From an uncultured Cohaesibacter sp. (GTDB lineage: Bacteria; Pseudomonadota; Alphaproteobacteria; Rhizobiales; Cohaesibacteraceae), in contig NZ_CAXXID010000002.1 of assembly GCF_963678225.2 (NCBI RefSeq), forward strand, positions 3,579,142 through 3,603,141: a stretch of 24,000 nucleotides of DNA, in the 5' to 3' direction. Under the pieces are notes generated by a model. The model saw only the letters and a list, made by a program, of their open reading frames with translations, was not told where the DNA came from and searched no databases. Positions 1-15,359 of the stretch are shown here, piece by piece (position 1 is the stretch's first letter; each line of letters opens with the position of its first letter). The translations under genes and the position numbers were made by a program.

Positions 1-420
1 GCTGACAAGATCCAAAACACGTTCAGTGCTTTCTGTATCGAAAATGACGCTTAAACGGGGATGCGCTGCAAGAACCTCAGGCAAAACGACAGAAGCACAC
101 AACTTGTTTAGCGAGCTCACTGTACCAAGACGAATGAACCCTTCGGATTCCGCATTTATATCCTGCGCAACACGAGAAATGTGATCGAGCCCTACAAAAA
201 CCCGCTCAACTTCGTGAAAAAGCTTAGACGCCTGTGTTCGGGGAACCAGTCTACCACGCACCCGATTGAAAAGCAGAAAGCCGATTTCCGCCTCAAGATC
301 CCGGATCAATCGGCTCACTGCTGGTTGGGTAATATTGAGGTTGGCGGCAGCGGCGCTGATTGATCCTGCGATCATAACGGCGCGAAATGCCTCTATCTGG
401 CGCTGTTGAATGTGATGCAT
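1..420 (-). CDS. LysR-family transcriptional regulator, N-terminal 140 codons (3' end runs off the left window edge)
   Basis: Absent from the ORF track because it is open at the window edge. The reverse complement of 420..1 reads MHHIQQRQIEAFRAVMIAGSISAAAANLNITQPAVSRLIRDLEAEIGFLLFNRVRGRLVPRTQASKLFHEVERVF... with no stop. It carries the classic LysR winged-HTH (TQPAVSRxIxxLE). It is divergent from the ABC cluster that starts at 556. Confidence 0.85.
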   Translation of the reverse strand, partial: MHHIQQRQIEAFRAVMIAGSISAAAANLNITQPAVSRLIRDLEAEIGFLLFNRVRGRLVPRTQASKLFHEVERVFVGLDHISRVAQDINAESEGFIRLGTVSSLNKLCASVVLPEVLAAHPRLSVIFDTESTERVLDLVS

Positions 421-506
421 AAATGGCAGCATATAACATTTCGGCATAGAGCGGCAAGAAAATTTGAATTGTGTTCTAGTGTTTTGCGGCGTTAGGCTGA
501 TCTTAC

Positions 507-530
507 CCGGACACCGTGGAGGTGCTCCGG
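507..530 (+). promoter_or_regulatory. Leader hairpin just upstream of the SBP ribosome-binding site
   Basis: ccggacacc gtgga ggtg(c)tccgg: 9 bp with one bulged C. It ends 12 nt before the gggagg RBS. Confidence 0.4.
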
Positions 531-555
531 AACATAATTTTCGGGAGGAAAATAC

Positions 556-2121
556 ATGGTATCTAAACCATGCGTCGCGATGACACTCGCTGCAGGCTTG
601 CTGGCAACCTGTTTCTCTGCCCCTGCAGCTCTTGCTGCTGATCTGAAGATCGGGATCGCCGGTTCACCAACATCAATGGACCCCCAGTTCTATGTTATTG
701 GCACCAACAGTGCCATGGCACGCAATATCTTTGATGGACTGGTCAATCAGGATGATCGTCAGCAACTCAAACCCGCCCTTGCAACCGAATGGACTGCCGT
801 TGACGACACGACCTGGCAGTTCCATTTGCGCGAAGGCGTAAAATTTCATGATGGATCAGACTTCGATGCTGATGATGTTGTGGCCTCTATTGCTCGCGTA
901 AAGCTGGCCTCGGAAAATAGCCCAAGCTCTTTCATGCCTTACGTGAAAGGCATCACTGCGGTTACGGCGATTGACCCGATGACGGTCGAATTCAAGACCG
1001 AAACAGCCATGCCGCTTCTGCCCAACAACCTGTCGCGCATTGCTATTTTGCCATCAGAAGAGGGGGAGACCCCAAGCTCTGAACTCAACACCGGTAAGGG
1101 CGTGATCGGTACTGGACCATTCAAATTCGTTAGCTGGATTCCGGATAGCACCATCGAGCTGGCACGCAATGATGACTATTGGGGCGACGTTTCGGAGTGG
1201 GATAATGTGACCTATAAGGTCTTTTCCAACCCGTCCGCTCGCGTTGCTTCTCTTCTCTCAGGCGATGTTGACATGATCGAGCAGGTGCCGCCTGCTGATA
1301 TCGGAACGCTGGAGAATAAAGACGGCGTTGGCATCGTAAGCAACAGCTCCAACCGCGTCATGTATCTGCATATGGATCAGGACCGCGATGATTCCCCATT
1401 CGCCAAGGGCCCAGATGGGCATAACCCGCTCAAGGATGTTCGCGTCCGCCATGGACTCTCTTTGGCCATCAATCGTCAGGCGATTATCGATCGCATCATG
1501 GACAAACAGGGTGTGCCCGCCGGTCAGCTGGTACCTGAAGGCTATACAGGTTATGTCGATAGTCTGAAGCCGGATCCGTATGACCCCAAGAAAGCCAAGG
1601 AGTTGTTTGCAGAAGCAGGCTATCCTAATGGCTTTGATCTGACCTTCCATGCCTCCAATGACCGCTATCCCAATGATAGCCTCGTTGCTCAGGCCATCGG
1701 ACAGATGTTCACCCGTGTTGGCATCAATACAGACATCGTGACCCTGCCGAAAAGCGTTTATTTCTCACGCGCTTCAGCGCTGGAATTCAGCTTTATCATG
1801 GGTGGCGCTGCCGTGGAAACCGGTGAAGCATCCGGCGTTCTGGGGCCTCTGCTTGAGACCTACGGTGACAATTCCGGACGAGGAAACCGCGGTCGCTATA
1901 GCTCCAAGGCTTTCGATGAAGCCCTGCAGCGTGGCCGTAGCCTCCTGGATGCAGATGCGCGAGACGAAGCGCTGCAGGAAGCCATGAAAATCGCTATGGA
2001 TGATATGGGTGTAATCCCTGTCTTCTTCCTGGCGCATACATGGGGGCTGGAAAACAGTCTGACCTACAAAGGCAGAACAGACGGCTATACGCTCGCAGCC
2101 AACGTCCATTCGGCCAAGTAA
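556..2121 (+). CDS. ABC transporter periplasmic substrate-binding protein, family 5 (DppA/OppA/NikA/opine-type)
   Basis: 521 aa. Signal peptide MVSKPCVAMTLAAGLLATCFSAPAALA. Family-5 SBP signature region LATEWTAVDDTTWQFHLREGVKFHDGSDFDADDVVASI. RBS gggagg lies 7 nt upstream of the ATG. Confidence 0.9.
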   Translation: MVSKPCVAMTLAAGLLATCFSAPAALAADLKIGIAGSPTSMDPQFYVIGTNSAMARNIFDGLVNQDDRQQLKPALATEWTAVDDTTWQFHLREGVKFHDGSDFDADDVVASIARVKLASENSPSSFMPYVKGITAVTAIDPMTVEFKTETAMPLLPNNLSRIAILPSEEGETPSSELNTGKGVIGTGPFKFVSWIPDSTIELARNDDYWGDVSEWDNVTYKVFSNPSARVASLLSGDVDMIEQVPPADIGTLENKDGVGIVSNSSNRVMYLHMDQDRDDSPFAKGPDGHNPLKDVRVRHGLSLAINRQAIIDRIMDKQGVPAGQLVPEGYTGYVDSLKPDPYDPKKAKELFAEAGYPNGFDLTFHASNDRYPNDSLVAQAIGQMFTRVGINTDIVTLPKSVYFSRASALEFSFIMGGAAVETGEASGVLGPLLETYGDNSGRGNRGRYSSKAFDEALQRGRSLLDADARDEALQEAMKIAMDDMGVIPVFFLAHTWGLENSLTYKGRTDGYTLAANVHSAK

Positions 2122-2153
2122 TAATACCCCGCAGTAAGACCCCAAGAGCCAAG

Positions 2154-2186
2154 GGCGAAGCGGTGACATTCAGTCATCGCTTCGCC
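2154..2186 (+). promoter_or_regulatory. Strong intercistronic hairpin immediately after the ABC binding-protein gene
   Basis: 14 contiguous pairs (ggcgaagcggtgac / gtcatcgcttcgcc, one G-U) with a 5-nt loop. No U-tract follows. Located 33 nt after the SBP stop and 20 nt before the next start. Confidence 0.6.
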
Positions 2187-2205
2187 TTAACAGAGAGACT
2201 ATGCC

Positions 2206-3183
2206 ATGTCTGCGAAGGCATCCCCGACCAAGAAGAAATCCATCATCATCGATTGCGACCCCGGCGTTGATGATACGTTGGCCATCCTTTTCGCGCTGGG
2301 CTCTCCCGAGCTGGATGTAAAAGCGATTACCACCGTTTGCGGCAACGTGCCGCTTGAAGTCTGCACCAAAAATGCACTGAAGATACTGGAGCTTGCCGGT
2401 AGAACCGATATCCCAGTTCATGCGGGTTGCGATGGTCCGATGATCGGCGAGCCGATCTTTGGCAAATTTCACGGAGCAGGCGGGCTGGGCAAGCTGGTTT
2501 TACCTGATCCGGTGACGCAGCCTTCTCCCAAGCATGCGGTGGGTAAAATGGCAGAATTGTTGCGCGCAGCAAAAACCAACAATGAAAAACTGACCATCTG
2601 CACACTGGGGCCGATGACCAATCTGGCTCTGCTGATCAAGCTGCATCCTGAACTGCTTTCTTCAATCGAATGTGTTGTCTCTATGGGCGGCGCTTACCGG
2701 ATTGCAGGCAACCGCACCCTGACATCGGAATTCAACATGCTGGCAGATCCCCACGCTGCCCGCATAGTCTATTCCGCAGGCCTTGAGTATGTCGCCCTTC
2801 CGCTTGATGCCACGCACCAGGCGATGACATCGCCCGAGCGGATCTCATGGTTTAAGGGCGGGGAGGCAGGTTCACCGCTCGCAGCGACTTATGAGCTCTT
2901 GAGCGGCTGGTCGCGCAACGATCCGCGTCGCTATGGCTCGGATGGCGGCCCCATGCATGATCCTCTGGTAACCATCTATCTGGTTGCGCCACATCTGTTC
3001 CAGACCGAACTCGCAAAGGTCTTCGTCGAATGCGACAGCCAACTCTGCTATGGTCAGACAGTGGCAGACTGGTACGGCCAAACCGGAGAAAAAGCGGATG
3101 CGCAAATCGTGCAGAAGGTAAATGCAGACGGTGTCTTCTCCATTCTGAGCGAGCGGATCAGATCGCTCTCCCAAGCAGGGTGA
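2206..3183 (+). CDS. Inosine/uridine-preferring nucleoside hydrolase family protein (canonical motifs)
   Basis: 325 aa. N-terminal IIIDCDPGVDD (DxDxxxDD), FHGAGGLG, GPMTNLA, EFNMLADPHAA and GGPMHDPL all match IUNH-family hallmarks. Confidence 0.85.
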   Translation: MSAKASPTKKKSIIIDCDPGVDDTLAILFALGSPELDVKAITTVCGNVPLEVCTKNALKILELAGRTDIPVHAGCDGPMIGEPIFGKFHGAGGLGKLVLPDPVTQPSPKHAVGKMAELLRAAKTNNEKLTICTLGPMTNLALLIKLHPELLSSIECVVSMGGAYRIAGNRTLTSEFNMLADPHAARIVYSAGLEYVALPLDATHQAMTSPERISWFKGGEAGSPLAATYELLSGWSRNDPRRYGSDGGPMHDPLVTIYLVAPHLFQTELAKVFVECDSQLCYGQTVADWYGQTGEKADAQIVQKVNADGVFSILSERIRSLSQAG

Positions 3184-3184
3184 A

Positions 3185-4234
3185 GTGATGAGCAAACGGA
3201 TATTCCTTTCTTCGGACCCCGGTATCGATGACATGGCAGCTATCCTGTTTGCCCTTGCAGACAGAGACATAGACCTCATCGGCATAGGCGCCGTGGCTGG
3301 CAATGTTGCCATGGAAACGGCACTGGAGAATGCACGCTTCACATGCGCGCTGGCCGCATCCTCTCGCGAGGTGCCGTGCTACGACGGCTCTGGCGGCCCA
3401 ATATTGCGCGACCAGATTTTTGGTGCACACAAGGCGCTCGGCTCTTTTCGCGATCATCTCAAAGATCTGTCCGCCCATTTGCCATCGCTTGACCCCGCCA
3501 ATATTGTGCCCGAGCAAACTGCGGCTGAGGTCATGGCCGAGGCCATTCGCGATGCTGCTCAGAGGCAAGAGCCTGTAAACCTTGTCGTAACCGGGCCGAT
3601 GACGGATGTTGCTCTAGCCATAAAGCTAGCAGGCAAGTCAAACTGTCAGACAGGGATCAAAACCATCGTTGCCATGGGTGGTGCGTTCAAAACCCTTGGC
3701 AATCGTGCTCCTTATGCTGAAATGAACATGTTGAGTGATCCTCATGCAGCCCGCATTGTCTGCGAAAGCAATATCAGGCTTATACTCTTTCCTCTGGATG
3801 TTACGTGGCAGTGCCGATTGACACATCAGGATCTTGAGCAGATGGAAAGGGAAGCGGGGTTGATCGGTAAGGTATTCTCAAAACTCTTCCAAGTCAGTGA
3901 TCGCGAAAATCCTTCGCTATATGGCGGACCGGGCGGACCGGTGCATGATCTTCTGCCCGTTGTCTGGCTTGTGGCAGATGCTTTATTCGAAGGCCGCAAC
4001 GCTCTCGTTTCGGTCGCTACCGGTCCTGAGCTGGCAGGCCATACCAGTCGATTACAACAAAAATTACATGATGAAGAGGGGTCCCCATTGCCTCATTTCA
4101 TCGTTGAGGGCGTGAACCGCGACGCTGTACTGGCGCTGTTTCTCGACCGTTTGAAATCGCTCGCAAATGGGCTGAACGGGGCCGAAACCAGCGCCCCTTG
4201 CAATAAAACAAACAGGGAGGAAGACCTGCAATGA
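3185..4234 (+). CDS. Divergent nucleoside hydrolase (IUNH) paralog with a degenerate N-terminal Asp motif
   Basis: 349 aa. Start is GTG 3185 or ATG 3188, one or four nt after the upstream stop. It retains GPMTDVA, EMNMLSDPHAA and GGPVHDLLP. However it reads SSDPGIDD instead of DxDxxxDD and FGAHKALGS instead of FHGxxGxG. Its stop overlaps the permease start (ATGA at 4231-4234). Confidence 0.75.
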   Translation: MMSKRIFLSSDPGIDDMAAILFALADRDIDLIGIGAVAGNVAMETALENARFTCALAASSREVPCYDGSGGPILRDQIFGAHKALGSFRDHLKDLSAHLPSLDPANIVPEQTAAEVMAEAIRDAAQRQEPVNLVVTGPMTDVALAIKLAGKSNCQTGIKTIVAMGGAFKTLGNRAPYAEMNMLSDPHAARIVCESNIRLILFPLDVTWQCRLTHQDLEQMEREAGLIGKVFSKLFQVSDRENPSLYGGPGGPVHDLLPVVWLVADALFEGRNALVSVATGPELAGHTSRLQQKLHDEEGSPLPHFIVEGVNRDAVLALFLDRLKSLANGLNGAETSAPCNKTNREEDLQ

Positions 4235-5208
4235 CAGCTTATCTTCTTCGCCGTGGCGGACAGACCCTTCTCACCTTACTGGTGATGTCAATCCTCGTCT
4301 TCGTTGGCGTGTATCTGGTTGGCAACCCGGTGGATGTCATGATCTCCGCAACGGCAACGCCCCAAGAACGCGCCGAACTGATCGTGCGCATGGGACTTGA
4401 CCAGCCGGTCTGGGTGCAATATTGGCACTTCCTCAAAGGAGCGCTATCGGGTGATTTGGGAAATTCCTTTCTCTATAACCGCCCCGCGCTGGGCCTCATT
4501 TTCGAGCGCATGCCCGCCACTCTGGAACTGGCCTTCAGCGCCCTGTTTCTCGGGTTGGTCTTTGGCATCCCGCTTGGCGTGATTGCCGGCCTACGTCCAT
4601 CGAAGCCGGAATCGCGCGGCATTATGGCTTTTTCTATCCTTGGTTTCTCGCTGCCCACTTTCTGGGTCGGGCTGATGATGATCCTGCTCTTTGCTGTCAA
4701 ACTTGATATCCTGCCAGCCTCAGGCCGTGGAGAGACAATCAATGTCCTGGGTGTGCCATTGAGTATCTTCACCACCGACGGCCTATCCCATATCTTCCTG
4801 CCTGCGCTCAATCTGGCCCTGTTCAAGATATCGCTTGTCATCCGCCTGACCCGAGCAGGCGTATCCGAAGCCTTGCAGTCTGAATATGTGCGCTTCGCGC
4901 GGGCCAAGGGGGTGAGCGAGTGGCGGATCGTCTTCTTGCATGTTTTGAAGAACACGCTCATTCCACTCATCACCGTCGTCGGTCTGGAACTTGGCGCTTT
5001 GATTGCCTTTGCCGTGGTTACCGAAACCATCTTTTCATGGCCCGGAATGGGCAAACTGATCATCGATGCCATCACGACGCTCGATCGCCCGGTTATTCTC
5101 GCTTACCTGATGATTACGGTGCTCATGTTTACAGTGATCAACCTGATCGTGGACCTGACCTATACGCTGGTTGACCCACGCGTTAAAATCGATGGGGGAT
5201 CAGAATGA
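4231..5208 (+). CDS. ABC transporter permease (DppB/OppB-like)
   Basis: 325 aa and multi-TM. EAA-loop region YVRFARAKGVSEWRIVFLHVLKNTLIPLITVVG is typical of DppB/OppB. ATGA overlaps at both ends. Confidence 0.9.
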   Translation: MTAYLLRRGGQTLLTLLVMSILVFVGVYLVGNPVDVMISATATPQERAELIVRMGLDQPVWVQYWHFLKGALSGDLGNSFLYNRPALGLIFERMPATLELAFSALFLGLVFGIPLGVIAGLRPSKPESRGIMAFSILGFSLPTFWVGLMMILLFAVKLDILPASGRGETINVLGVPLSIFTTDGLSHIFLPALNLALFKISLVIRLTRAGVSEALQSEYVRFARAKGVSEWRIVFLHVLKNTLIPLITVVGLELGALIAFAVVTETIFSWPGMGKLIIDAITTLDRPVILAYLMITVLMFTVINLIVDLTYTLVDPRVKIDGGSE

Positions 5209-6170
5209 CCGATATGACCAGCAACATGAACGCATCGGGCCCGTCTGAAGACCTTGCCGCCCAGATTGCCGCGGCCAACAGCTTCCCGCCCGAGCCACCT
5301 GCGCGGCCCATTCGCAGCGCCATCAAGCGCGTATTGACAGACCCCTTGGGTCTTGTGGGTACAGTGATTGTTGTGGTGATGCTTCTGGCCGCTCTCTGCG
5401 CCCATTGGATTGCACCGCAAAACCCTTATGATCTGGCAGTGCTGGATATCCTGGATAACCGCCTGCCGCCCGGCTCGGAGAGCTTTTCGGGCATGACCTA
5501 TTGGCTGGGGACGGACGATCAGGGGCGCGACCTTTATAGTGCCATTCTCTATGGTCTAAGGACCAGTATCTTCGTTGGCATTGCCTCTGCAGGTATCGCG
5601 CTGGTGATTGGCTCTGTGATGGGGCTCATTAGCGCCTATTTTGGCGGTCGCACCGACACCCTGGTTATGCGTCTGGTCGACATCCAGCTCAGCTTTCCTC
5701 CCATTTTGGTGGCGCTTATTCTGCTGGCCATTCTGGGACAGGGCGTTGACAAGATCATCGTCGCCTTGGTTGTGACCCAATGGGCCTATTATGCTCGAAC
5801 CGTGCGCGGCGCGGCGCTTGTGGAGCGCGGGCGAACCTATGTGGACGCGGCCCGCTGTCTGGCCCTGCCTTCGCGCATGGTGACGATGAATCACATTTTG
5901 CCAAACTGTCTGCCGCCGTTGATCGTTGTTGCTACCATGCGTGTGGCCTATGCGGTCAGTCTGGAAGCCACTCTGTCCTTCCTAGGCATTGGTTTGCCGG
6001 TGACTGAGCCGTCGCTTGGTCTGCTCATTTCGAACGGCAACAAATATATGCTCTCTGGTGACTGGTGGATTTCAGTCTTCCCCGGCGTGGCCCTGTTGTT
6101 GCTGATCGTCGGCATCAACCTTGTTGGCGACCGCCTGCGCGATGTGCTCAATCCCAAGTTCAAGGACTAG
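5205..6170 (+). CDS. ABC transporter permease (DppC/OppC-like)
   Basis: 321 aa. Contains the YVDAARCLALPSRMVTMNHILPNCLPPLIVVAT EAA-loop region and a DppC-type N-terminal TM plus periplasmic loop. Confidence 0.9.
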   Translation: MTDMTSNMNASGPSEDLAAQIAAANSFPPEPPARPIRSAIKRVLTDPLGLVGTVIVVVMLLAALCAHWIAPQNPYDLAVLDILDNRLPPGSESFSGMTYWLGTDDQGRDLYSAILYGLRTSIFVGIASAGIALVIGSVMGLISAYFGGRTDTLVMRLVDIQLSFPPILVALILLAILGQGVDKIIVALVVTQWAYYARTVRGAALVERGRTYVDAARCLALPSRMVTMNHILPNCLPPLIVVATMRVAYAVSLEATLSFLGIGLPVTEPSLGLLISNGNKYMLSGDWWISVFPGVALLLLIVGINLVGDRLRDVLNPKFKD

Positions 6171-6173
6171 ATC

Positions 6174-7181
6174 ATGACCACAAATATGACCAGCCGATCT
6201 GACTATGCTCTTGAATTGCGCGGCCTTGAAACCGTTTTTGACGGCGACAAGGGAGCTGTTGCCGCCGTGCGCAACGTCAATCTGGCCATCAAGCCGGGTG
6301 AAATTGTAGGGTTGGTGGGCGAATCCGGGTCCGGCAAGTCGGTGACAGGCCTCTCTATCATGGGCCTCATTGACCGGCCGGGTCGGGTATCAAAAGGCGA
6401 AATCCTGCTCAATGGTGAGGATCTGCGCAAAGTGTCCGCCAAGCGTCTGCGCTCTCTCAGGGGTGATCGCATGGCGATGATCTTTCAGGACCCCATGATG
6501 ACCCTCAATCCGGTGCTCCGGATCGATACGCAGATGATTGAGGCCATCACCGCCCATGATCCCCGCATTGACAAGACGGTCGCCCGCAACCGTTGTCGCG
6601 ATGCGCTCGGTATGGTGGGGATTCCCGACCCCGAAGAGCGGCTCTATGCCTATCCGCATCAATTCTCCGGCGGTATGCGTCAGCGTGTCGCCATCGCGAT
6701 TGCCATGCTCAACAATCCCGATCTGATCATCGCTGATGAGCCGACAACGGCGCTTGATGTGACCATTCAGGCGCAGATCATTGCCGAGATGCAAAAACTC
6801 TGCAAAGAGCGCGGCACGGCCCTCATCTGGATCACCCACGATCTCACCGTGGTGGCCGAACTGACCCAACGTGTCTATGTGATGTATGCGGGATCAGTTG
6901 TGGAAGAGGGCCCACTGGATGATGTTTTGGATCATCCGCTTCATCCCTACACGCAAGGACTTATCCGGTCCATTCCATCGGACAATGACCCCGGTGCGCG
7001 TTTGTTCCAGATACCGGGCATGACGCCCCCCATTGACCGGATGCCCAAGGGGTGCCGGTTCCATCCGCGGTGCCCTTATGTTCAGCTTGATTGCCTGAAC
7101 GACATAGAGCTGACCCAGACCAGCGCGGCGCGCTCGGTGCGGTGTGCGCATCCGATCAATCAGGGAGAACAGGTCTCATGA
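6174..7181 (+). CDS. ABC transporter ATP-binding protein (DppD/OppD-like)
   Basis: 335 aa. Walker A GESGSGKS, signature FSGGMRQR, Walker B LIIADEPTTALD. C-terminal oligopeptide-type domain with HPYTQGL and a 4-Cys motif. Confidence 0.9.
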   Translation: MTTNMTSRSDYALELRGLETVFDGDKGAVAAVRNVNLAIKPGEIVGLVGESGSGKSVTGLSIMGLIDRPGRVSKGEILLNGEDLRKVSAKRLRSLRGDRMAMIFQDPMMTLNPVLRIDTQMIEAITAHDPRIDKTVARNRCRDALGMVGIPDPEERLYAYPHQFSGGMRQRVAIAIAMLNNPDLIIADEPTTALDVTIQAQIIAEMQKLCKERGTALIWITHDLTVVAELTQRVYVMYAGSVVEEGPLDDVLDHPLHPYTQGLIRSIPSDNDPGARLFQIPGMTPPIDRMPKGCRFHPRCPYVQLDCLNDIELTQTSAARSVRCAHPINQGEQVS

Positions 7182-8227
7182 TCTCCAATAACGAAAAACA
7201 AGAAGCGCAGGTAAAGGCTTCCCCGGATCAGCAGGCGCCTTTGCTGGAAATCGATCATGTCACGCGCCGCTTTGAGCGTAAGCCCGACTTTGCCGCCAAA
7301 TTGGCCGCCCGGTTGGGGGCGCCCATCAACCGCCGCACGGTGCATGCCGTAGACGATGCCTCCTTTGCCATTCATCAACGTGAAGTGGTCGGGCTGGTCG
7401 GAGAATCCGGCTGTGGCAAGTCGACCCTCGGGCGTATCGTCGCGGGCATTGATGACCCGACAGAGGGCCGCATTCTCTATCGGGGGCAGGATGTTGCCCA
7501 TGCTTCAGGGGAAGCGACCAGAAAATTCCATCTCAAGATCCAGATGATCTTTCAGGATCCGCTCGATTCTCTTAATCCGCGCTACCGCATCGGCAAGTCC
7601 GTTTCCGAGGCTGCCCGCTATCACAAGGTCGTGCCAGAAGAGAAGATGACCGAGCATATCGAGAAGGTGCTCCTGCAATGCGGTGTTGATCCCACCACCC
7701 AGAACCGCTTTCCGCACCAGTTCTCCGGAGGTCAGCGACAGCGGATCGGGATTGCGCGTGCACTGGCATTGCGTCCGGATATGGTGGTTTGTGATGAAGC
7801 CGTGGCATCTCTAGACGTCTCAATTCAGGCCCAGATCATTAACCTGTTCATGGATCTGCGTGATGAATATGATCTGGCCTATTTGTTTGTCAGCCACGAT
7901 ATCGGTGTTGTGCGTCATATCTCCGACAGGGTTGTGGTGATGTATCTGGGCCGGATCGTGGAGCAGGGGACAACGGCGGAATTGTTCGCCAAGCCAAACC
8001 ATCCCTACACTCAGGCACTCTTAAGTGAAGTCCCCAGCCTGAAACGGCGGCATTCCTCTTTCCATACCATCAAGGGAGAGATACCTTCGCCTTTGAAACC
8101 ACCCTCGGGCTGTCACTTCCATCCGCGGTGCCCTCATGCCATGGAACGCTGCAAACTGGAACGGCCAATGCTCAAGGCGGTTGCTTCAGGGCATATGTCT
8201 GCCTGCCACCTCAATGATGAAGGATAG
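7178..8227 (+). CDS. ABC transporter ATP-binding protein (DppF/OppF-like)
   Basis: I place the start at ATG 7178 (MISNNEKQ...). This forms an ATGA overlap with the upstream stop, unlike the track's longer 7091 start. Walker A GESGCGKS, signature FSGGQRQR, Walker B MVVCDEAVASLD, HPYTQAL, C-terminal 4-Cys motif. Confidence 0.88.
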   Translation: MISNNEKQEAQVKASPDQQAPLLEIDHVTRRFERKPDFAAKLAARLGAPINRRTVHAVDDASFAIHQREVVGLVGESGCGKSTLGRIVAGIDDPTEGRILYRGQDVAHASGEATRKFHLKIQMIFQDPLDSLNPRYRIGKSVSEAARYHKVVPEEKMTEHIEKVLLQCGVDPTTQNRFPHQFSGGQRQRIGIARALALRPDMVVCDEAVASLDVSIQAQIINLFMDLRDEYDLAYLFVSHDIGVVRHISDRVVVMYLGRIVEQGTTAELFAKPNHPYTQALLSEVPSLKRRHSSFHTIKGEIPSPLKPPSGCHFHPRCPHAMERCKLERPMLKAVASGHMSACHLNDEG

Positions 8228-8295
8228 GGCGGGCTCCCATCGCCAATGGGACAATGTGCCCCCAGCTTAGTGCCGTGACGAAAAGGACAAGCAAA

Positions 8296-9180
8296 ATGAT
8301 TACGGTTTTCGGTTCCATCAATCTCGATATGGTGATCCGTGTTGCGGATTTTCCCCGCCCCGGCGAGACCATCACCACCCATGGTTTTGACATGTCCGCT
8401 GGTGGCAAGGGCGCCAATCAGGCGCTTGCCGTGCGTCGGGCTGGGGGCTCCGTGCGCATGGTAGGGCTGACCGGAGCGGATAGTCATGCTCAGCTTGCAC
8501 TTGCTTTGCTTGAGGAAGCCGGTGTTGACCTCACACGCACGAGGGCCTGCAAGGAAAGCACCGGACTGGCCTTCATTCAGGTGGAAGACAGCGGCGAGAA
8601 TACCATCGCCATCGTCAAGGGTGCCAATGGGGAGGTTACTCCTCAAACCGCAGACAATACACTTGGTGATCTCGCAAAGGGTGACCTTTTGCTATTGCAG
8701 CAGGAAATCCCCTTTACAGCCATCGATCAGGCCCTTGATCTGGCAAAAAAGGCCGGTGCCAAAAGCGTGCTCAATACCGCACCCTTTCAGGACGCCTACC
8801 TGCCTCTGGCCAATAAAGCCGATGTGGTTATTTCCAACGAAACCGAATTCGATGCTCTCATGCCTGGAGCCGACCCTATGCAACAGCGGGCAAAGGCTTT
8901 CGTGGCTCAAAAGGATCGCTTGTTGATCGTGACGCTGGGTGCCGAAGGTGCGCTGGTGGTTGAACCGGGTAAGGAACCAGTTCAGGTGCCATCCCCCAAG
9001 CTGGAGAAGGTGGTCGATACCACAGGAGCTGGCGACACCTTCTGCGGCTATTTCTGCCAGATGATGGCCGATGGAGCTGATCCCGTCACCGCCACTCGCA
9101 AGGCGGTCAAGGCGGCCAGTCTGGCCTGTTGCAAGAACGGGGCTCAACCGTCCATCCCGCTCGCGGCAGATGTGGCCTGA
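8296..9180 (+). CDS. rbsK: Ribokinase (PfkB family)
   Basis: Start chosen at ATG 8296 (MITVFGSINLDMV...), preceded by aaagga. Motifs GGKGANQA and DTTGAGDTF, plus the N-terminal VFGSINxD, are ribokinase hallmarks. Confidence 0.85.
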   Translation: MITVFGSINLDMVIRVADFPRPGETITTHGFDMSAGGKGANQALAVRRAGGSVRMVGLTGADSHAQLALALLEEAGVDLTRTRACKESTGLAFIQVEDSGENTIAIVKGANGEVTPQTADNTLGDLAKGDLLLLQQEIPFTAIDQALDLAKKAGAKSVLNTAPFQDAYLPLANKADVVISNETEFDALMPGADPMQQRAKAFVAQKDRLLIVTLGAEGALVVEPGKEPVQVPSPKLEKVVDTTGAGDTFCGYFCQMMADGADPVTATRKAVKAASLACCKNGAQPSIPLAADVA

Positions 9181-9240
9181 GTTTTTTCTCGGATCTATAG
9201 GCTAGTCAGGTCCGGTTCCACTCTCTAATGGAGTTTGATC

Positions 9241-10125
9241 ATGTCTTTTCGTGGTGTGTTTCCCTATCTCGTCTCTCCTGTCACCTCTGATGGTGTCGTG
9301 ATGAAAGGCATACTGACTGATCTCGTTGATCATCTCATCGAGGCCGGCGTGCATGGGCTGACCCCGCTGGGCAGCACTGGCGAATTCGCCTATCTCTCGC
9401 AGCAGCAACGCAACGAAGTCGTTGATACGGTGATCAAGGCGAACAATGGGCGGGTGCCTGTCATTGCAGGCGTGGCCTCAACCTCGACCGCAGATGCGGT
9501 CGCCCAGACCCGCCACATGATCAATGCCGGAGCGGACAGTATTCTTGCCATTCTGGAAGCCTATTTCCCGGTCAGTGAAGCCGGGGTCGAGAGCTATTTT
9601 ACCCAGATTGCCAAAGCAGCCGATGGCAAGCCCGTTGTGCTCTATACCAACCCGCAATTCCAGCGCTCAGACCTGACCCTGCCGGTTATCGAGCGCTTGA
9701 GCCAAATCGATAATATCCGCTATATCAAGGATGCCTCAACCAATACCGGGCGACTGCTTTCCATCATCGAACGCACCAGAGGGCGTATGGAAGTATTCTC
9801 CGCCTCCGCGCATATTCCTGCCTGTGTCATGATGATTGGTGGCGTGGGCTGGATGGCTGGCCCCGCCTGCATCGTGCCCAAACAGAGCATCGCGCTCTAT
9901 GAAGCCGCCCAGATGGGCGACTGGGACAAGGCTATGGAGCTGCAACGCCCTCTCTGGCGGATCAATGAAATCTTTGCCAAATACTCCATAGCGGGATGCA
10001 TCAAGGCCGCGCTAGATCTGCAGGGCTTCAAGGTTGGCGACCCCATTGCGCCCCAGGCACCCTTGGGTAAAGAAGCTCGCCATGAAATTGCTGCGGTTTT
10101 GCGAGAAGTCGGTGCTTTGACCTAG
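9241..10125 (+). CDS. Dihydrodipicolinate synthase / N-acetylneuraminate lyase family class I aldolase-like protein (substrate unknown)
   Basis: Start chosen at ATG 9241 ([10 protein letters not shown]...) with ggag 7 nt upstream. GSTGEF motif, YTNP, and candidate Schiff-base Lys in IRYIKDAS. Separated from rbsK by 60 nt that begins with a T-run but has no strong hairpin. Confidence 0.8.
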
Positions 10126-10187
10126 AACGTCAAGTACACATTAAGGCAATACGAACAGCACAAAGGCATTCACCGCCATGGGGTTTT

Positions 10188-12800
10188 CTACTTCCTGAAG
10201 AGTTTACTCGCACCGCCTGATATGACCAGGGTTACATCTTTAAGCGCCGAAATAGGAGAAACCCCGGGAGGAACCGCGACAAAACGGGGTTGCCAGTCGG
10301 GATGGAATTTCTGCTTGAAGGCACGTAGTCCTTCAAAATTATAAAATGACCGTCCGTGCCGATACATAATGGCGCCGAAACGACTCCAAAGACGGGCACC
10401 CTTGCGCACTTGGAGACCCGCAAGCGGAGCAAGGCTGAGACTGAATTCCTCTGCGCCGGTTCTTCTGGCATATTCGATCAGTTCAATGAAGAGAAATTCC
10501 ATCACGCCGTTGGCCTGTTCAGGCGGGTAGCGCATCAGGTCAATTGAAACGCGGGAACCGTCTCCCGGGCGAAGTATATTGGCAAAGGCCAAAATTTCGC
10601 CATGGCGTTTGATGGTGGCTATGGAGAAATTCTGCAAATAGCCAGGGTCGAACCGCCCCAGCGAGAACCCTTTTTCCCCGCCAACCTTATCTGCAATCCA
10701 CGCATCTGAAATTGATTTCAACTGGCCCATCAGAGACAGATCATGAGGGGCATCGTTGATCGTCAATTCGAAGCCATCCTTCAAAGCCTTATTGTGTGCT
10801 GAACGCATAGATTTGAACTTGCTGCCAGCAAGGGTGAAATCGCGCAATAGAATTTCAGCTTCTTCACCGATCTTATGGAGTGAAAAGCCCATTTCTATCC
10901 AGAGCGAAAGATAGGCTTTGCTCACCTCGAACATGACCGGGTGGGCGCCGTTGTCGTAAGCTTCCTCCCAGAATGACCAGACGAGGGCCTCAATAGATTC
11001 CTTCGGCCCAACCGGGTCCGAATAGGCAATCCATTTGTTGCCTTGTACCGCATACATGATGAAAGCATCTTCGCTGTCGTTAAAGAACAGCTCCTTGTCT
11101 CCGGTCAGAGCCAAACAGGCTTTTGGGTCATTCTGCTGATCAATGATGGCGCGGGCTTTCTTAAGGGCCGATTTATCAGGAGGCCTAGTATGGAAAGTTG
11201 CGGGCTGAATGGCGAGCCAAACAGTTACGAACAAAAAGAAAGATGACCCGGCCAATCCGGCGCGTAAAGCACGGGAAGTGTTTGCTATGCTCGAAAAATC
11301 AGTCCAGAGATCTGTGCTATATGGGGTCGCTTCATGCATGAAGAAAAACACAGTCGCGGCACTGACCGCTATTCCGCCCGCAAGAGCGAACCATCCCGGG
11401 CTCAGCACACTGCGGGTCAATTTGGCCGAACGGTTGAAGAAGCTTCGAAAAGGCCAAAGGACAATCGCCGTAGTTAGCAGCAACAGGACGCTATCCAGAT
11501 CCAGCTTGTTCATCAAAGCTGCACCAGAAGCTACAGCGAGAGCAGTTAAAGTGAGCCAGTAGGCTCCGGATATCCTGCGCACAAGTCCTTGGCTCAAGAT
11601 GACCAACAAGACACCCAAAACAGCAGAGAGGAGGGCGCCACCCTCAAGAAGGATCGTCGCCAGCAAATCGTCAGGGTCTATCTCATCCGGCCGGACCGAT
11701 GGCATGAGTGCGATAAGAACCAGATAACTGCCTATGCCAAAGACGGCAAGGCCAATCAAGGTAGGCGCAACGCCACTGGCTGCCTTCATGACCGGTCGGA
11801 GCGGTTCAGACACATCGCCAAACAGTCTGGTGATAAAACCACCGGCAAAGCGGGCTTCATTGATCGCGACAAAGACAAGAGCAAGCGCAAAGGGTAAGAG
11901 ATAATAAATAAGCCGATAGAGAAGCAACGCAGCCGCGATCTGATCAAGCGGCACACCCTTGGGGAGGGCCGCGATGATGATGGTTTCGAAAACACCGACA
12001 CCACCAGGCACATGACTGAGCACACCCGCCATTGATGCGGCAGCAAAGACCGGCAGGAAGGTGAGAAAATCGGGGCGAGCGCCCGGGAGCAAAACATAGA
12101 GCGTTAGCGCTGCCATTGAGGTGTCTATAAGGGTAAAAGCCAGCTGTGAAAAAAGCACTCCCGGCGTTGGGGCCGATAGTTCGAACTTGCCCAACCGAAA
12201 GCTTTTTCCGTTCAGAGACATAAGCAACAGGAACAACACGACGGCCACAGCGGCAACCCCAGCCCAAATTCTCAGACTAACTGGCGCGATTGGCAAGATA
12301 TTGACTAGCGCATAAGGGTGAATTGCTAACGCTGCAAGGCCAATCACCGTTATGCCAAAGCCGAATGCAAGTGCGGCAAAGGTCGAAACGCTTGCAATCT
12401 CGAACAGGCTCAATCCAAAAGCAGAATAGACCCTATAGCGTACGGCACCGCCGGAAATCACACTAACACCGATCGTGTTGCCGAAGCTGTAGCCGAGAAA
12501 TCCGCCCACAGCGATGGCACTTGCGGGCACTTTCTTGCCAAGGGACCGCAAAGCTGACCAGTCATAACCGATCAATGCAATATAGCCCGCAGCCGTTGCC
12601 AAAAGAGCTGACAACAATGTCAACCACGGGGTCATGCGCACCTGAGCAATAACGTCCGTCGCCTTGACGGGTTTGAGCAAATGATAAAGCGCGTAAATAC
12701 CGAGCACAAACAAAATAAGAGCAAGCAGGATCGGCGCAGACTTTCTTGCGTAGGAAGCCCAATCTGATTGAGCGAGGCTATCGGAGTTTGAACTGGACAA
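10188..12800 (-). CDS. mprF: Bifunctional aminoacyl(lysyl/alanyl)-phosphatidylglycerol synthase/flippase, MprF/LpiA-like
   Basis: 870 aa. The N-terminal ~530 aa is a very hydrophobic multi-TM domain. The soluble C-terminal ~330 aa ends in ...YNFEGLRAFKQKFHPDWQPRF..., characteristic of the aminoacyl-PG synthase (DUF2156) domain. The only in-frame start that preserves the first TM segment is TTG at 12800. Confidence 0.82.
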   Translation of the reverse strand: MSSSNSDSLAQSDWASYARKSAPILLALILFVLGIYALYHLLKPVKATDVIAQVRMTPWLTLLSALLATAAGYIALIGYDWSALRSLGKKVPASAIAVGGFLGYSFGNTIGVSVISGGAVRYRVYSAFGLSLFEIASVSTFAALAFGFGITVIGLAALAIHPYALVNILPIAPVSLRIWAGVAAVAVVLFLLLMSLNGKSFRLGKFELSAPTPGVLFSQLAFTLIDTSMAALTLYVLLPGARPDFLTFLPVFAAASMAGVLSHVPGGVGVFETIIIAALPKGVPLDQIAAALLLYRLIYYLLPFALALVFVAINEARFAGGFITRLFGDVSEPLRPVMKAASGVAPTLIGLAVFGIGSYLVLIALMPSVRPDEIDPDDLLATILLEGGALLSAVLGVLLVILSQGLVRRISGAYWLTLTALAVASGAALMNKLDLDSVLLLLTTAIVLWPFRSFFNRSAKLTRSVLSPGWFALAGGIAVSAATVFFFMHEATPYSTDLWTDFSSIANTSRALRAGLAGSSFFLFVTVWLAIQPATFHTRPPDKSALKKARAIIDQQNDPKACLALTGDKELFFNDSEDAFIMYAVQGNKWIAYSDPVGPKESIEALVWSFWEEAYDNGAHPVMFEVSKAYLSLWIEMGFSLHKIGEEAEILLRDFTLAGSKFKSMRSAHNKALKDGFELTINDAPHDLSLMGQLKSISDAWIADKVGGEKGFSLGRFDPGYLQNFSIATIKRHGEILAFANILRPGDGSRVSIDLMRYPPEQANGVMEFLFIELIEYARRTGAEEFSLSLAPLAGLQVRKGARLWSRFGAIMYRHGRSFYNFEGLRAFKQKFHPDWQPRFVAVPPGVSPISALKDVTLVISGGASKLFRK

Positions 12801-13075: not shown

Positions 13076-13993
13076 CTACTCTACCGGCTCAAATCCAAAC
13101 TCCGGTGTAAACGACTGAATAGCTTCAATAACTTCAACAATCCTCGGATCTGATTTGCGCTCGAGCAAAACATAGATCCCCATAAGCCAGCGAGGGATTT
13201 CCTCATCGGGAGTCATTTCGATCTGAACAAGGCCTTTGCTTCCTAGAAAACTATTCAGCTGTGTCGAATGAACCAGAACCATATCGGTTTCCAGCACCAT
13301 ATCAACACAAGCCGTCATGGAGTTTGACATGAAGGTGTGGCCAAACCAGTCAGACCGCGGCTCATTTGCATCTGCACGTTGTCCAAGTTGTCGGTCTTCG
13401 GGTTGAACAGCGATGCATGTTGGCCATTGGGTGATCTCGTCTCGGTGACGCGGCTGTTCAAGCAGAGGATGGTCAGGCCGGACATAATAGGCATCGGCGG
13501 CCATCCCAAGTGGAATGAATTCCACTTCACTGCGTTTATTGAAATCGGGAATAATGTGCCCGACAAATAATGAAATATCACCAGCAAGCAGATGGTCCAT
13601 GCAGGCCATCATGTTGCCAACACTGACATTGATAGAAACCTTTGGAAAAGCCTGATGATGCTTGATTAAATAATCTTTGAAGAATTGCGTCCAGGTAGAA
13701 TACCCCGTACCAATACTTATGCCATGCTCGCGTTCTTCACGAAGTTGATCAATATTGTCTATCGCATTTGCATAAATCCGGCGCATAAGATGCGCACTTT
13801 TATAGAGAGTCTCACCATAAGTGGTCAAGCGCACCCCGCGAGAAGATCGTTTGAACAGTTTGACCTTCATCTTCTCTTCAAGCTTCTTTATGTTGTATGT
13901 CAAAGCAGGCTGAGATATCAACAACTTACTGGAAGCCGCCGCAAAAGAACCTGCATCTGCGACTTCAAGAAACTGCTCTAATGTGCGATCCAT
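13076..13993 (-). CDS. LysR-family transcriptional regulator
   Basis: Start placed at ATG 13993 (MDRTLEQFLEVADAGSFAAASSKLLISQPALTYNIKKLEEKM...), preceded by gggaga. It has the LysR wHTH and a substrate-binding C-terminal domain. The track's 38-aa N-terminal extension has no support. Divergent from dctP. Confidence 0.85.
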   Translation of the reverse strand: MDRTLEQFLEVADAGSFAAASSKLLISQPALTYNIKKLEEKMKVKLFKRSSRGVRLTTYGETLYKSAHLMRRIYANAIDNIDQLREEREHGISIGTGYSTWTQFFKDYLIKHHQAFPKVSINVSVGNMMACMDHLLAGDISLFVGHIIPDFNKRSEVEFIPLGMAADAYYVRPDHPLLEQPRHRDEITQWPTCIAVQPEDRQLGQRADANEPRSDWFGHTFMSNSMTACVDMVLETDMVLVHSTQLNSFLGSKGLVQIEMTPDEEIPRWLMGIYVLLERKSDPRIVEVIEAIQSFTPEFGFEPVE

Positions 13994-14138
13994 TTTCCGA
14001 TTTCTCCCGAATAAACGCCACCCTTTTCTATAAAATTCATTTATATTAGCGCCGTTTTTTTGTATTGGATTTAAAGCCTCGAGAAATCTATATTCGCGCC
14101 AAGCCATTTGTCAATTCCAGTAAACCTGAAATTGCCAG

Positions 14139-14173
14139 GTGCAAAAAGAGGGTATTTTTGCGAGTGATTGCAC
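14139..14173. promoter_or_regulatory. Nested inverted repeats in the LysR-dctP divergent intergenic region (candidate LysR box)
   Basis: GTGCAAAAA-gagggta-TTTTTGC, then GAGTGA, then TTGCAC. GCAAAAA (14141-14147) pairs with TTTTTGC (14155-14161). GTGCAA (14139-14144) pairs with TTGCAC (14168-14173). Confidence 0.4.
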
Positions 14174-14291
14174 TATAACACTCCATTGTCCGACCATGGT
14201 GGAGGCTTCAAAAAGTAGTCATGCCGGACAATACGTAAAAATACTTTCTTTGTCTCAAGTTTAAAATTCTCGTTTCGAAAGGGAGAAAGTC

Positions 14292-15272
14292 ATGAGACTT
14301 GGAAAGATCGGAACACTTCTGGTTGCTTCAATCGCATTCGGGGCTCTTAGCTCTTCTGCATCTGCTCTTACACTTAAAGTGTCGGATTCTCACAACAACA
14401 ATCACTCAACCGTTGTCGCTCTGAACGAGTTTAGCTCTGCGATTGAAGAGCGCACGGGTGGTGACGTTGAAGTGCAGGTATTTGGCGCAGGCGTGCTCGG
14501 TACCGAATCCGAAATGATCAACCAGCTGCGCATGGGCATTCTGGACATGGTGCGGACAGCGCCAACTGATCTGGAAAAATTCAACCCAGTCTACAGTGCT
14601 TTTTTGCTTCCTTACCTCTTCAAGGATGACGCTGGCGTTGAAAAGGCCATGAGCGAAGTCAAAGATGATGTGTTCCACTCTCATCCGGATTCCGGTTTCA
14701 TGGGGCTTGCCTGGAATACAGCAGGGGCTCGCAGCTTCTATACCGTGGACAAGGAAATCAACAGCCCAGCCGATCTGGAAGGCCTGAAAATCCGCGTTCC
14801 GAACAGCCGTTCCATGACACAGGCTGTTGAAATGCTCGGCGCAACGGCAACGCCTGTGCCTTGGGGTGAAGTTTACACGGCTCTGCAGCAGGGCATCGTT
14901 GATGGCGCCGAGGGAAGCCCGACTTCTCTGATTGACGGTAAATTTGTTGAAGTCATTCGTCACTTCTCCTTCGATCGTCACTTTACCATTCCTGACGTTC
15001 TGATCATCAGCACCAAAACCTGGGACAAGCTGAACGACGAACAGAAAGCGATCTTCAAGGAAGAAGCAGAAAATTACACCAAGCGTGTTGCTGTTCTTGA
15101 AGAAGAGAAGGTTGCCAAAGCGATCGCTCTGTCCAAAGAGCAGGGCGTAGCCTTCAAGGACGTTGATCTGGCCCCCTTTAAAGCGCGCGTTATGCCGCTC
15201 TATGACGAGCTGCGCGCCAACAATGAAGAAGCTGCCGAGATCGTATCTCGCATTGAAGCAGCTCAAGAGTAA
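14292..15272 (+). CDS. dctP: TRAP transporter substrate-binding protein (DctP family)
   Basis: 326 aa. Signal peptide MRLGKIGTLLVASIAFGALSSSASA. DctP-family sequence features, and followed by dctQ/dctM-type genes. RBS gggaga. Confidence 0.88.
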   Translation: MRLGKIGTLLVASIAFGALSSSASALTLKVSDSHNNNHSTVVALNEFSSAIEERTGGDVEVQVFGAGVLGTESEMINQLRMGILDMVRTAPTDLEKFNPVYSAFLLPYLFKDDAGVEKAMSEVKDDVFHSHPDSGFMGLAWNTAGARSFYTVDKEINSPADLEGLKIRVPNSRSMTQAVEMLGATATPVPWGEVYTALQQGIVDGAEGSPTSLIDGKFVEVIRHFSFDRHFTIPDVLIISTKTWDKLNDEQKAIFKEEAENYTKRVAVLEEEKVAKAIALSKEQGVAFKDVDLAPFKARVMPLYDELRANNEEAAEIVSRIEAAQE

Positions 15273-15304
15273 GGTGAGCGGTATCTAACCCTCGTATGAT
15301 GTGT

Positions 15305-15322
15305 TTCCGGCTCTAGCCGGAA
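15305..15322 (+). promoter_or_regulatory. Intercistronic hairpin after dctP
   Basis: ttccggc tcta gccggaa: a perfect 7-bp stem with a 4-nt loop, 33 nt after the dctP stop. Confidence 0.5.
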
Positions 15323-15359
15323 GCACTGCCTTTCTCCTCTAATTAAGGCACAAACCTTC

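Follow-up and report, generated by a model that had tools for sequence, protein, structure and literature searches.

A 24,000-nucleotide stretch of DNA from an uncultured Cohaesibacter sp. (assembly GCF_963678225.2, contig NZ_CAXXID010000002.1, positions 3,579,142 to 3,603,141), here called the window, carries a gene cluster in which a Dpp/Opp-family ATP-binding cassette (ABC) importer is combined with two nucleoside hydrolases, NH1 and NH2, and with a lyase of the dihydrodipicolinate synthase/N-acetylneuraminate lyase (DHDPS/NAL) family, next to a divergent gene for a LysR-type regulator. The cluster is real, widely conserved and mobile. It is also apparently undescribed, as an earlier note on this DNA had proposed: neither full-text literature searches nor a search of PDB sequences turned up an account of the cluster, of its substrate-binding protein (SBP) orthologues or of its lyase orthologues, and the database names of its proteins are generic. 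The individual parts are already known, as is the standard logic of an importer, catabolic enzymes and a LysR regulator; what is new is that nucleoside hydrolases and a NAL-type lyase are combined with an importer of the Dpp/Opp family. Observed directly were which genes the cluster contains, that they are conserved as a unit, that catalytic residues are intact and that an operator is shared. In our judgement it is an even prospect that the cluster is a LysR-controlled operon for the uptake and catabolism of an N-riboside, the non-sugar part of which would probably not be a plain nucleobase but have an acidic or amino-acid-like character. The import and breakdown of an N-ribosylated compound had been put forward in the earlier note and is supported.

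Genes were called from the listing of open reading frames (ORFs) and from Pfam and NCBIfam profile scans of the window, which bore out the nine plus-strand genes of the earlier note in both coordinates and domains, and also its divergent LysR gene. The features of the cluster are as follows.

1..420, minus strand: LysR-type regulator, N-terminal 140 residues (PF00126 HTH_1, 63 bits; start ATG 420)
433..449, no strand assigned: operator-like box 1, ATAACATTTCGGCATAG (family pattern ATAACATT-N5-AT, near the regulator start codon)
460..470, no strand assigned: box 2, AAATTTGAATT (AAATGCAATTT in most loci)
556..2121, plus strand: family-5 SBP, 521 aa (SBP_bac_5 PF00496, 309 bits)
2152..2188, plus strand: 16-bp stem-loop between the SBP and NH1 genes (folding versus shuffles)
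2206..3183, plus strand: NH1, nucleoside hydrolase 1, 325 aa, with the inosine-uridine nucleoside hydrolase (IUNH) fold (IU_nuc_hydro PF01156, 295.7 bits)
3185..4234, plus strand: NH2, nucleoside hydrolase 2, 349 aa (IU_nuc_hydro PF01156, 199.9 bits)
4231..5208, plus strand: DppB/OppB-type permease (BPD_transp_1 and BPD_transp_1_N)
5205..6170, plus strand: DppC/OppC-type permease (BPD_transp_1 and OppC_N)
6174..7181, plus strand: DppD/OppD-type ATPase (ABC_tran and oligo_HPY)
7178..8227, plus strand: DppF/OppF-type ATPase (ABC_tran and oligo_HPY)
8254..9180, plus strand: ribokinase-like PfkB kinase (PfkB; TIGR02152 ribokinase is the best NCBIfam model)
9235..10125, likely start ATG 9241, plus strand: DHDPS/NAL-family class I (Schiff-base) lyase (PF00701, 195.6 bits)

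Conservation and spread of the cluster

GTDB representative genomes, one per species, were queried with an alignment of SBP orthologues. Relatives were found in at least 284 species, and the best 80 loci were taken with 10-kb flanks; the window proteins were mapped onto these loci by tblastn, and the counts that follow refer to the 76 loci not cut by a contig end. The divergent LysR gene was present in all 76, as was at least one hydrolase gene between the SBP and permease genes, with two hydrolase genes in 75. The earlier note had placed the hydrolases inside the transporter gene string, and this holds throughout the orthologous loci; the absence of hydrolase genes from such loci, which the note had named as a refutation, was not seen. 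An arrangement shared by 75 of 76 orthologous loci of different species is therefore not a chance juxtaposition, and with order and content conserved in this way the genes can be regarded, as had been suggested, as one unit. Independent gene calls in Pectobacterium and Rhodovulum agreed with the tblastn picture.

The dominant gene order, seen in 70 loci, is SBP, lyase, hydrolase, hydrolase, permease, permease, ATPase. The lyase gene occurs in 73 of the 76 loci, lying directly 3' of the SBP gene in 70 of those, and the lyase-last order of the window is a variant found in the three Cohaesibacter loci. Since it is so frequent, and stands between the SBP and hydrolase genes in 70 loci, the lyase is a core member of the cluster; the earlier note was right to count it in, but not in allowing that a T-run behind the ribokinase gene might set it apart as a separate unit. 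The T-run was ruled out as a terminator by a terminator scan, which found no terminator-like site between the ribokinase and lyase genes, and by folding of the gap, which was no better than that of shuffled sequence (z = 0.15). A ribokinase-like gene follows the ATPase gene in only 28 of the 76 loci and is therefore accessory rather than core. All-against-all clustering of the flanking ORFs (loci L002 and L004 left out) revealed no conserved neighbour beyond the core genes and the ribokinase.

The loci span Alpha-, Beta- and Gammaproteobacteria and include Hyphomicrobiales, Rhodobacterales, Rhodospirillales, a Rhodoferax metagenome-assembled genome (MAG) and plant-associated Enterobacterales. 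Among the carriers are Rhizobiaceae, Phyllobacteriaceae, Bosea, Microvirga, Rhodovulum, Salipiger and Paracoccus, as well as an Azospirillaceae MAG, the Rhodoferax MAG, Pectobacterium, Rahnella and Samsonia. When Agrobacterium or Rhodovulum is compared with Pectobacterium, every component shows 57-81% identity, and megaplasmids of Rahnella and large plasmid replicons of Neorhizobium carry the cluster. Because of this similarity across classes and the plasmid location, the cluster has evidently been passed on horizontally as a whole.

The operon and its proteins

The gene junctions reported in the earlier note were confirmed by direct reading. The NH1 stop codon TGA ends at 3183 and the NH2 gene starts with GTG at 3185, after a 1-nt gap (an alternative start is ATG 3188), and ATGA overlaps join genes at 4231-4234, 5205-5208 and 7178-7181. 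With overlaps or 1-nt spacing in the run from NH1 to the second ATPase gene, these genes are, to judge from their junctions, translationally coupled. The DHDPS-family ORF at 9235-10125 was also found as first described, but its translation start was not: a GGAG motif at 9230-9233 lies 7 nt 5' of ATG 9241, and because of this motif and because the resulting length equals that of a 294-aa, 99%-identical database protein (P0121), ATG 9241 is probably the start of a 294-aa product.

The hairpin at 2152-2188 is the sole strong RNA structure within the operon, with a perfect 16-bp stem, a folding energy of -28.9 kcal/mol (z = -5.2 versus shuffles) and no U-run. As an element of a type common after SBP genes, it may stabilise the transcript or cause attenuation, and it may set the expression ratio of the SBP to the membrane components. 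No RNA element was found in the window by Rfam or tRNA scans.

The rest of the divergent LysR gene lies beyond the window edge. Full-length orthologues have HTH_1 and LysR_substrate domains and score best, among the NCBIfam models, with PRK11013, an E. coli LysR-type model (148 bits, cut-off 288). Of 82 intergenic regions between the LysR and SBP genes, taken from alpha- and gammaproteobacterial loci, 67 have the pattern ATAACATT-N5-AT without variation, and in 60 of these the second box, AAATGCAATTT, stands at a distance of exactly 27 nt from it. Such a two-box layout would be expected of the recognition and activation sites of a LysR-type protein. The two domains, the divergent orientation and the conserved promoter box all mark the protein as a LysR-type regulator, with the boxes as its putative operator, and since this operator is shared across loci the regulator and the operon travel together.

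With 295.7 and 199.9 bits against a PF01156 gathering threshold of 34.2, both NH1 and NH2 belong to the nucleoside hydrolase family. They are only about 35% identical to each other and are, from this divergence, ancient paralogues. The known enzymes with which they have the fold and Pfam family in common are RihA, RihB (YeiK), RihC and the Crithidia IU-NH, which are group I, His-type and Ca2+-dependent, and the DxDxxxDD fingerprint, the E-x-N ribose contacts and the His-Asp pair of these enzymes are kept. Neither cluster hydrolase reaches the cut-off of any of the corresponding models: NH1 scored 240, 181, 222 and 205 bits against RihA, RihB, RihC and UriH (cut-offs 433, 459, 382 and 450), and NH2 scored lower still, with 150 bits against 433 in the RihA-type comparison. 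They differ from the Rih enzymes also in being old paralogues encoded in tandem inside a transporter operon.

In NH1, the residues DCDPGVDD, N39, E166/N168 and H241-D242 are invariant among 79 orthologues except for one E166-to-D exchange, and in NH2 the catalytic D, DD, N, E/D-x-N and H-D are retained in 66 of 66 copies, so that NH2 as a pseudo-enzyme was rejected. The first Asp of the NH2 DxD motif is Ser in five copies, including that of the window (the Cohaesibacter and Afifellaceae ones were read in the alignment); in YeiK this Asp is presumably not a metal ligand. The residues that bind Ca2+ or take part in catalysis in solved IUNH enzymes have their equivalents in both hydrolases, and the His-Asp pair that defines group I His-type enzymes (Crithidia His241 beside Asp242) is invariant in both paralogues. 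By these residues NH1 and NH2 are bona fide IUNH-fold enzymes, and they look active. The two differ at the FHG motif, which contains the equivalent of YeiK His82 and is present in NH1, being absent from the NH2 copies inspected (Cohaesibacter, Rhodovulum and Pectobacterium). At the base-contacting positions of YeiK, Thr223 is replaced by Trp or Ser and Gln227 by Asp or Asn in NH1 and NH2.

The junction between the two hydrolase genes is a 1-nt gap in the window and in Pectobacterium and an overlap in Rhodovulum, a tight coupling that would fit a heteromeric enzyme. A precedent comes from plants, where NSH1 and NSH2 form a two-paralogue hydrolase heterocomplex acting on ordinary nucleosides.

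NH2 is the fastest-evolving gene of the cluster, also in comparisons covering Pectobacterium, Rahnella, Rhizobiaceae and Rhodobacterales. In the window, the SBP is 99% identical to a Cohaesibacter marisflavi protein, and NH2 is 71% identical to the C. marisflavi type-strain copy, against 97-100% for the other cluster proteins. A blastn comparison with the type-strain contig gave 92-94% DNA identity over window positions 1-3468 and 4207-12104, and no match for the segment 3469-4206, which lies inside NH2. The pattern suggests that an allele was replaced or that divergence has a hot spot here, in either case only within the second hydrolase. From the protein and DNA identities, the source of the window is a close relative of C. 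marisflavi, a marine alphaproteobacterium, and not the type strain itself.

The domain set of a PepT-type (Dpp/Opp/Nik) importer is complete, with a family-5 SBP, two BPD_transp_1 permeases and two oligo_HPY ATPases. The N-terminus of the SBP, as read from the sequence, resembles a Sec signal peptide ending ALA/AD. Orthologues with 62-69% identity occur in at least 284 species, and in a plasmid collection the orthologues are 62-67% identical and everything else is at most 44% identical; this sharp gap defines a distinct orthologous group. The DppB/OppB-type permease is 69-76% identical across most loci outside the Cohaesibacter/Afifellaceae clade, the ATPase region is about 45% identical to that of the window in most loci, and both ATPases are fused as one gene of about 600 aa in the Pectobacterium and Rhodovulum loci.

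The SBP falls below all NCBIfam equivalog cut-offs for DppA, NikA, GsiB, OppA, CntA and SapA, the best score being that of DppA (174 bits, cut-off 1005). Among proteins of solved structure it scored highest with an uncharacterised Bacillus protein, with DppA and with GsiB/YliB (150-169 bits); DppA, GsiB and 5U4O scored in this range, and AccA and AgaA at 130-134 bits. An AlphaFold model of the SBP, built from 15 orthologues, had a predicted local distance difference test (pLDDT) score of 70, with values below 50 in loops 38-55 and 400-448. In a Foldseek search of the PDB with this model, GsiB/YliB, the glutathione binder GbpA and DppA came first, closely followed by AccA, nickel binders and the Haemophilus ducreyi sialic-acid binder, all at 18-26% identity. 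The SBP is thus not of the AccA type, since AccA scores lower and is placed by Foldseek below GsiB, GbpA and DppA. The comparison with AccA and with opine- and peptide-binding proteins that the earlier note had proposed gave no ligand assignment, and the assignment of a ligand from structure was dropped, the matches to glutathione, dipeptide, nickel, AccA-type and sialic-acid binders being nearly equal and the SBP standing about as far from each of these kinds, at 20-26% identity. The same note had listed peptides, nickel, opines, agrocinopine and agrocin 84 as cargo of family-5 systems, which is right as far as it goes but incomplete, for solved SBPs also bind glutathione and sialic acid.

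Two further observations bear on the ligand. Glu421 of the SBP, invariant within an invariant ETGE motif, aligns with DppA Asp408, which we take to be the ligand of the peptide alpha-ammonium group, and the invariant loop NDRYPND aligns with the Arg355 region of DppA. The nearest SBP paralogues, at about 41% identity, are encoded in operons of the order SBP, hydrolase, gamma-glutamyltransferase (GGT), permeases, ATPases (locus L092 on Rhizobium leguminosarum plasmid pRL22b6, 1-15160; locus L079, 852-8914), suggesting gamma-glutamyl compounds as their cargo. Glu421 and the GGT-linked paralogues together give hints of an amino-acid-like moiety in the ligand.

These glutathione/gamma-glutamyl importers with Ggt, of the GsiABCD type, are the nearest paralogous systems (the permeases of the Phyllobacterium paralogue are about 60% identical) and have the same unusual order of SBP, two enzymes, permeases and ATPases; the inserted enzymes are a hydrolase and a gamma-glutamyltransferase there, and two nucleoside hydrolases and a lyase in the cluster. 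Directly upstream in L092 lies another ABC operon, in which two DHDPS-family genes are interleaved with ATPase genes. This operon and those of the GGT type show that enzyme genes embedded in ABC gene strings recur in these loci.

Other known importers resemble the cluster in part. The CUT2-type systems with Bmp/PnrA-like SBPs (RnsBACD, NupABC-BmpA) have the same presumed role, ATP-driven riboside uptake followed by salvage or catabolism, but belong to a wholly different transporter family from the family-5 SBP and the Dpp/Opp-type permeases and oligo_HPY ATPases of the cluster. The Agrobacterium acc operon (AccA-E with AccF/AccG, for agrocinopines and agrocin 84) likewise joins a family-5 importer to enzymes that dismantle a non-peptide cargo, and it too occurs in plant-associated hosts. 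The cluster SBP is, however, no nearer to AccA (about 130 bits, 20-23%) than to DppA or GsiB, and the acc enzymes are a phosphodiesterase and a phosphatase, whereas the cluster has nucleoside hydrolases and a lyase, with their genes between those of the SBP and the permeases. Sialic-acid catabolism begins with a NAL-family lyase, and SatABCD of H. ducreyi, with a family-5 SBP for this non-peptide acid, is a precedent for such a pairing; its SBP is about 24% identical to that of the cluster, it has no nucleoside hydrolases, and the cluster lyase is not NanA.

The lyase, with 195.6 bits against a PF00701 threshold of 22.1, is a member of the DHDPS/NAL superfamily. It scored 153.2 bits with the dapA model TIGR00674 (cut-off 206.15) and was far below the cut-offs of the NanA (86 bits, cut-off 382), KdgD, HpaI-like and archaeal 2-keto-3-deoxygluconate (KDG) aldolase models. 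In a residue alignment whose reference sequences, including E. coli DapA, were entered by hand, the Schiff-base residue K165 (DapA K161) and Y137 and Y110 (DapA Tyr133 and Tyr107) are kept, the motif is the NAL-type GSTGE instead of the GTTGE of DapA, and DapA R138 is replaced by F142. DapA Arg138 binds aspartate semialdehyde, and a role as dihydrodipicolinate synthase was rejected on the score and on Phe142 in place of Arg138. The only close solved relative is a structural-genomics entry, 3EB2 (393 bits), with no function assigned. In most loci outside the Cohaesibacter clade the lyase is 75-83% identical to its orthologues. The view of the lyase as the most conserved gene was dropped; it holds only in comparisons with the window, and elsewhere lyase and transporter are about equally conserved.

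A sister clade of the lyase, 64-66% identical, is found in different operons. One type of unit comprises a GntR regulator, a PcaB/adenylosuccinate-lyase (ADSL)-like enzyme, a DctA-type dicarboxylate carrier and the lyase, and occurs on a Roseomonas gilardii plasmid (L085, 5254-9876) and in Janthinobacterium (L088, 3336-7885), where a class II fumarase adjoins it. On a Rhizobium plasmid, the sister-clade lyase gene lies with genes for a LysR regulator and a carrier of the MFS type, and a gene for an aldehyde dehydrogenase is found shortly past that of LysR. As the sister-clade neighbours are DctA-type or MFS carriers together with PcaB/ADSL-like lyases or an aldehyde dehydrogenase, it is suggested that this type of lyase acts on a small carboxylic 2-oxo acid reachable by several routes. 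The gene context of more distant homologues (Methylobacterium, Holophaga and two other loci) was uninformative.

The PfkB protein scored 268.4 bits with the ribokinase model TIGR02152 (cut-off 299.65), which is 58 bits more than with the second ribokinase model and about 170 bits more than with a model of any other kind of kinase. Outside Cohaesibacter, the ribokinase-like genes are 34-37% identical to that of the window and also score best as ribokinase. The gene is thus either unusually divergent or was recruited twice, to judge from these scores, and both would agree with ribose as a product. The presence of ribokinase-like genes of two very different sequence types at the same operon position supports ribose release.

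Proposed pathway and alternative explanations

Each biochemical step of the following scheme, like the nature of the substrate, is one that we infer. The periplasmic family-5 SBP would capture the riboside, which the Dpp/Opp-type permeases and ATPases would import. In the cytoplasm NH1 and NH2, possibly as a heteromer, would cleave the N-ribosidic bond; the ribose would be phosphorylated by the ribokinase of the operon or a housekeeping one and enter the pentose-phosphate pathway, and the aglycone, or a 2-oxo acid derived from it, would be cleaved or dehydrated by the NAL/DHDPS-type lyase to pyruvate or a related product. LysR would bind the ATAACATT-N5-AT operator and, prompted by the substrate or an intermediate, turn on the operon.

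A wider reading, in which the cluster would be the first riboside-dedicated Dpp/Opp importer joined to an unrecognised pathway with heteromeric hydrolases, a new NAL/DHDPS specificity class and a dedicated LysR regulator, all spread horizontally, is offered tentatively, as somewhat short of an even prospect. The aglycone would then be amino-acid-like or dicarboxylic, the pathway would be spread among plant-associated and marine Proteobacteria, and the substrate might be a modified nucleoside set free in RNA or cofactor turnover, or a plant or algal exudate. Nicotinic-acid riboside, S-adenosylhomocysteine, acp3U, lysidine, succinyladenosine and ribose-Kdo fragments were considered as candidates by reasoning, and none explains all three enzyme types.

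Several points weigh against the N-riboside operon as proposed. The lyase is absent from three of the 76 loci: L013, the Rhodoferax MAG, has a single hydrolase and no lyase, and L054 (Bosea sp.) and L065 (Pectobacterium colocasium) have both hydrolases and no lyase, with a gap of about 400 nt in L065 at the expected position of the lyase gene. The pair of transporter and hydrolase can therefore stand alone. The His241-type site of both hydrolases is typical of enzymes acting on ordinary pyrimidine and purine nucleosides. The argument from Glu421 is one of sequence alignment, because the AlphaFold model is poor in the putative ligand loops. Finally, no known natural riboside was found whose aglycone obviously needs a pyruvate-type lyase.

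The main rival, in our estimate an unlikely one, is the scavenging of ordinary nucleosides (uridine, cytidine, inosine, xanthosine) by a re-tooled Dpp-type importer, with the lyase in a side function. The two hydrolases would cover pyrimidine and purine nucleosides or form a heterocomplex, as the plant enzymes do, and ribose would serve as carbon source. It would agree with the co-occurrence of a ribokinase, with the three loci devoid of lyase, and with the best solved or curated relatives of the hydrolases, RihA, RihB, RihC and IU-NH, which act on canonical nucleosides and of which the catalytic residues are all kept, including His241, with the His82 equivalent also in NH1. The lyase argues to the contrary, as a bystander role is hard to reconcile with a gene that is present in 73 of 76 loci, central in 70 and conserved like the transporter core; to our knowledge, canonical bases are not substrates of pyruvate-type lyases. 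Nor do the hydrolases come near the RihA/B/C cut-offs or keep the residues at the YeiK Gln227 and Thr223 positions, and the solved-structure family-5 matches of the SBP include no nucleoside binder.

Another explanation replaces the N-riboside by an O-linked ribofuranoside or a conjugate of an ulosonic or sialic-type acid, such as a ribose-Kdo-like capsular or plant glycan fragment. The IUNH-fold enzymes would then be ribofuranosidases, and the NAL-like lyase would split a 2-keto-3-deoxy acid into pyruvate and an aldose. IU-NH cleaves activated O-ribosides such as p-nitrophenyl riboside, and we know of no IUNH-fold enzyme that cleaves unactivated ones. The NAL-type GSTGE motif of the lyase, in place of GTTGE, would fit such a substrate, as would the presence of the solved H. 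ducreyi sialic-acid binder (PDB 5Z99/5YYB) among the family-5 matches, but the SBP is no nearer to this protein than to peptide binders, its nearest paralogues point to amino-acid-type ligands, and the NanA and KDG-aldolase models score below dapA for the lyase. The ribose utilization systems (RUS) of Bacteroides, which belong to a different phylum, reportedly act on ill-defined ribose-containing nutrients through SusC/D-type transport with a permease, and their substrates are said to be incompletely known. These loci join nucleoside-hydrolase homologues and ribokinases in clusters for ribose scavenging (10.1101/574913) and lend the O-riboside some support; they are not known to include a NAL-type lyase. 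Overall, we regard the O-riboside or ulosonic-acid explanation as quite improbable.

An ordinary importer of peptides or gamma-glutamyl peptides with hydrolase and lyase genes inserted by chance, to which the best scores of the transporter parts (with Dpp, Opp, Nik and Gsi models) and the GGT-linked nearest paralogues might point, is barely credible, given an insertion found in 76 of 76 orthologous loci of three proteobacterial classes with a shared operator, the drop in SBP identity from 62% for orthologues to 44% for all others in the plasmid collection, and genes that appear translationally coupled.

Surroundings of the operon and significance

Immediately downstream of the operon and convergent with it, on the minus strand at 10188-12800, lies the full-length gene for MprF, the bifunctional lysyl-phosphatidylglycerol synthase/flippase (806 bits, equivalog cut-off 600), which is found also in the C. 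marisflavi type-strain locus. At 13076-18616, a second LysR gene is divergent from the genes of a tripartite ATP-independent periplasmic (TRAP) transporter (DctP, DctQ, DctM), followed by a family-4 glycoside hydrolase that is alpha-galactosidase-like (283 bits, cut-off 486). TRAP transporters usually carry organic acids, and the pairing suggests uptake of an acidic glycoside. A link of this transporter to the cluster was considered, as the Rhodovulum locus also has a TRAP system, and was set aside as coincidence, the DctP proteins being only 27% identical and the two systems not orthologous.

The next 2.3 kb or so (18617-20965) are ORF-poor, with a G+C content of 0.39-0.46 compared with 0.50-0.57 around them. 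No Rfam or tRNA match and no direct repeats were found in this segment, which has one weak inverted repeat only, and the 110-aa ORF at 19191-19523 had no Pfam match. The remainder of the window (20966-24000) contains the start of a heterotetrameric sarcosine-oxidase-type operon, with SoxB (710 bits, above the cut-off) and SoxD at 20966-22539; a SoxA gene would be expected in the last 1.4 kb.

If the cluster is indeed an N-riboside operon, the substrate range of the peptide/opine ABC family would extend to ribosides. A function would be given to a group of SBPs present in at least 284 species and now named only "ABC transporter substrate-binding protein", and likewise to a clade of the DHDPS family that includes the orphan structure 3EB2 and is named by some sources 4-hydroxy-tetrahydrodipicolinate synthase. 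The tandem of two hydrolases, both catalytically intact by their residues and one of them fast-evolving, would provide a tractable bacterial case of a two-paralogue hydrolase. The GntR-regulated unit of the sister clade represents a further small pathway that is still uncharacterised, and its elucidation might show to which class the lyase substrate belongs. The conserved LysR operator would be a ready biosensor for finding the substrate itself, and the cluster as a whole would point to an unrecognised ribose-containing nutrient common to rhizosphere, phytopathogen and marine niches.

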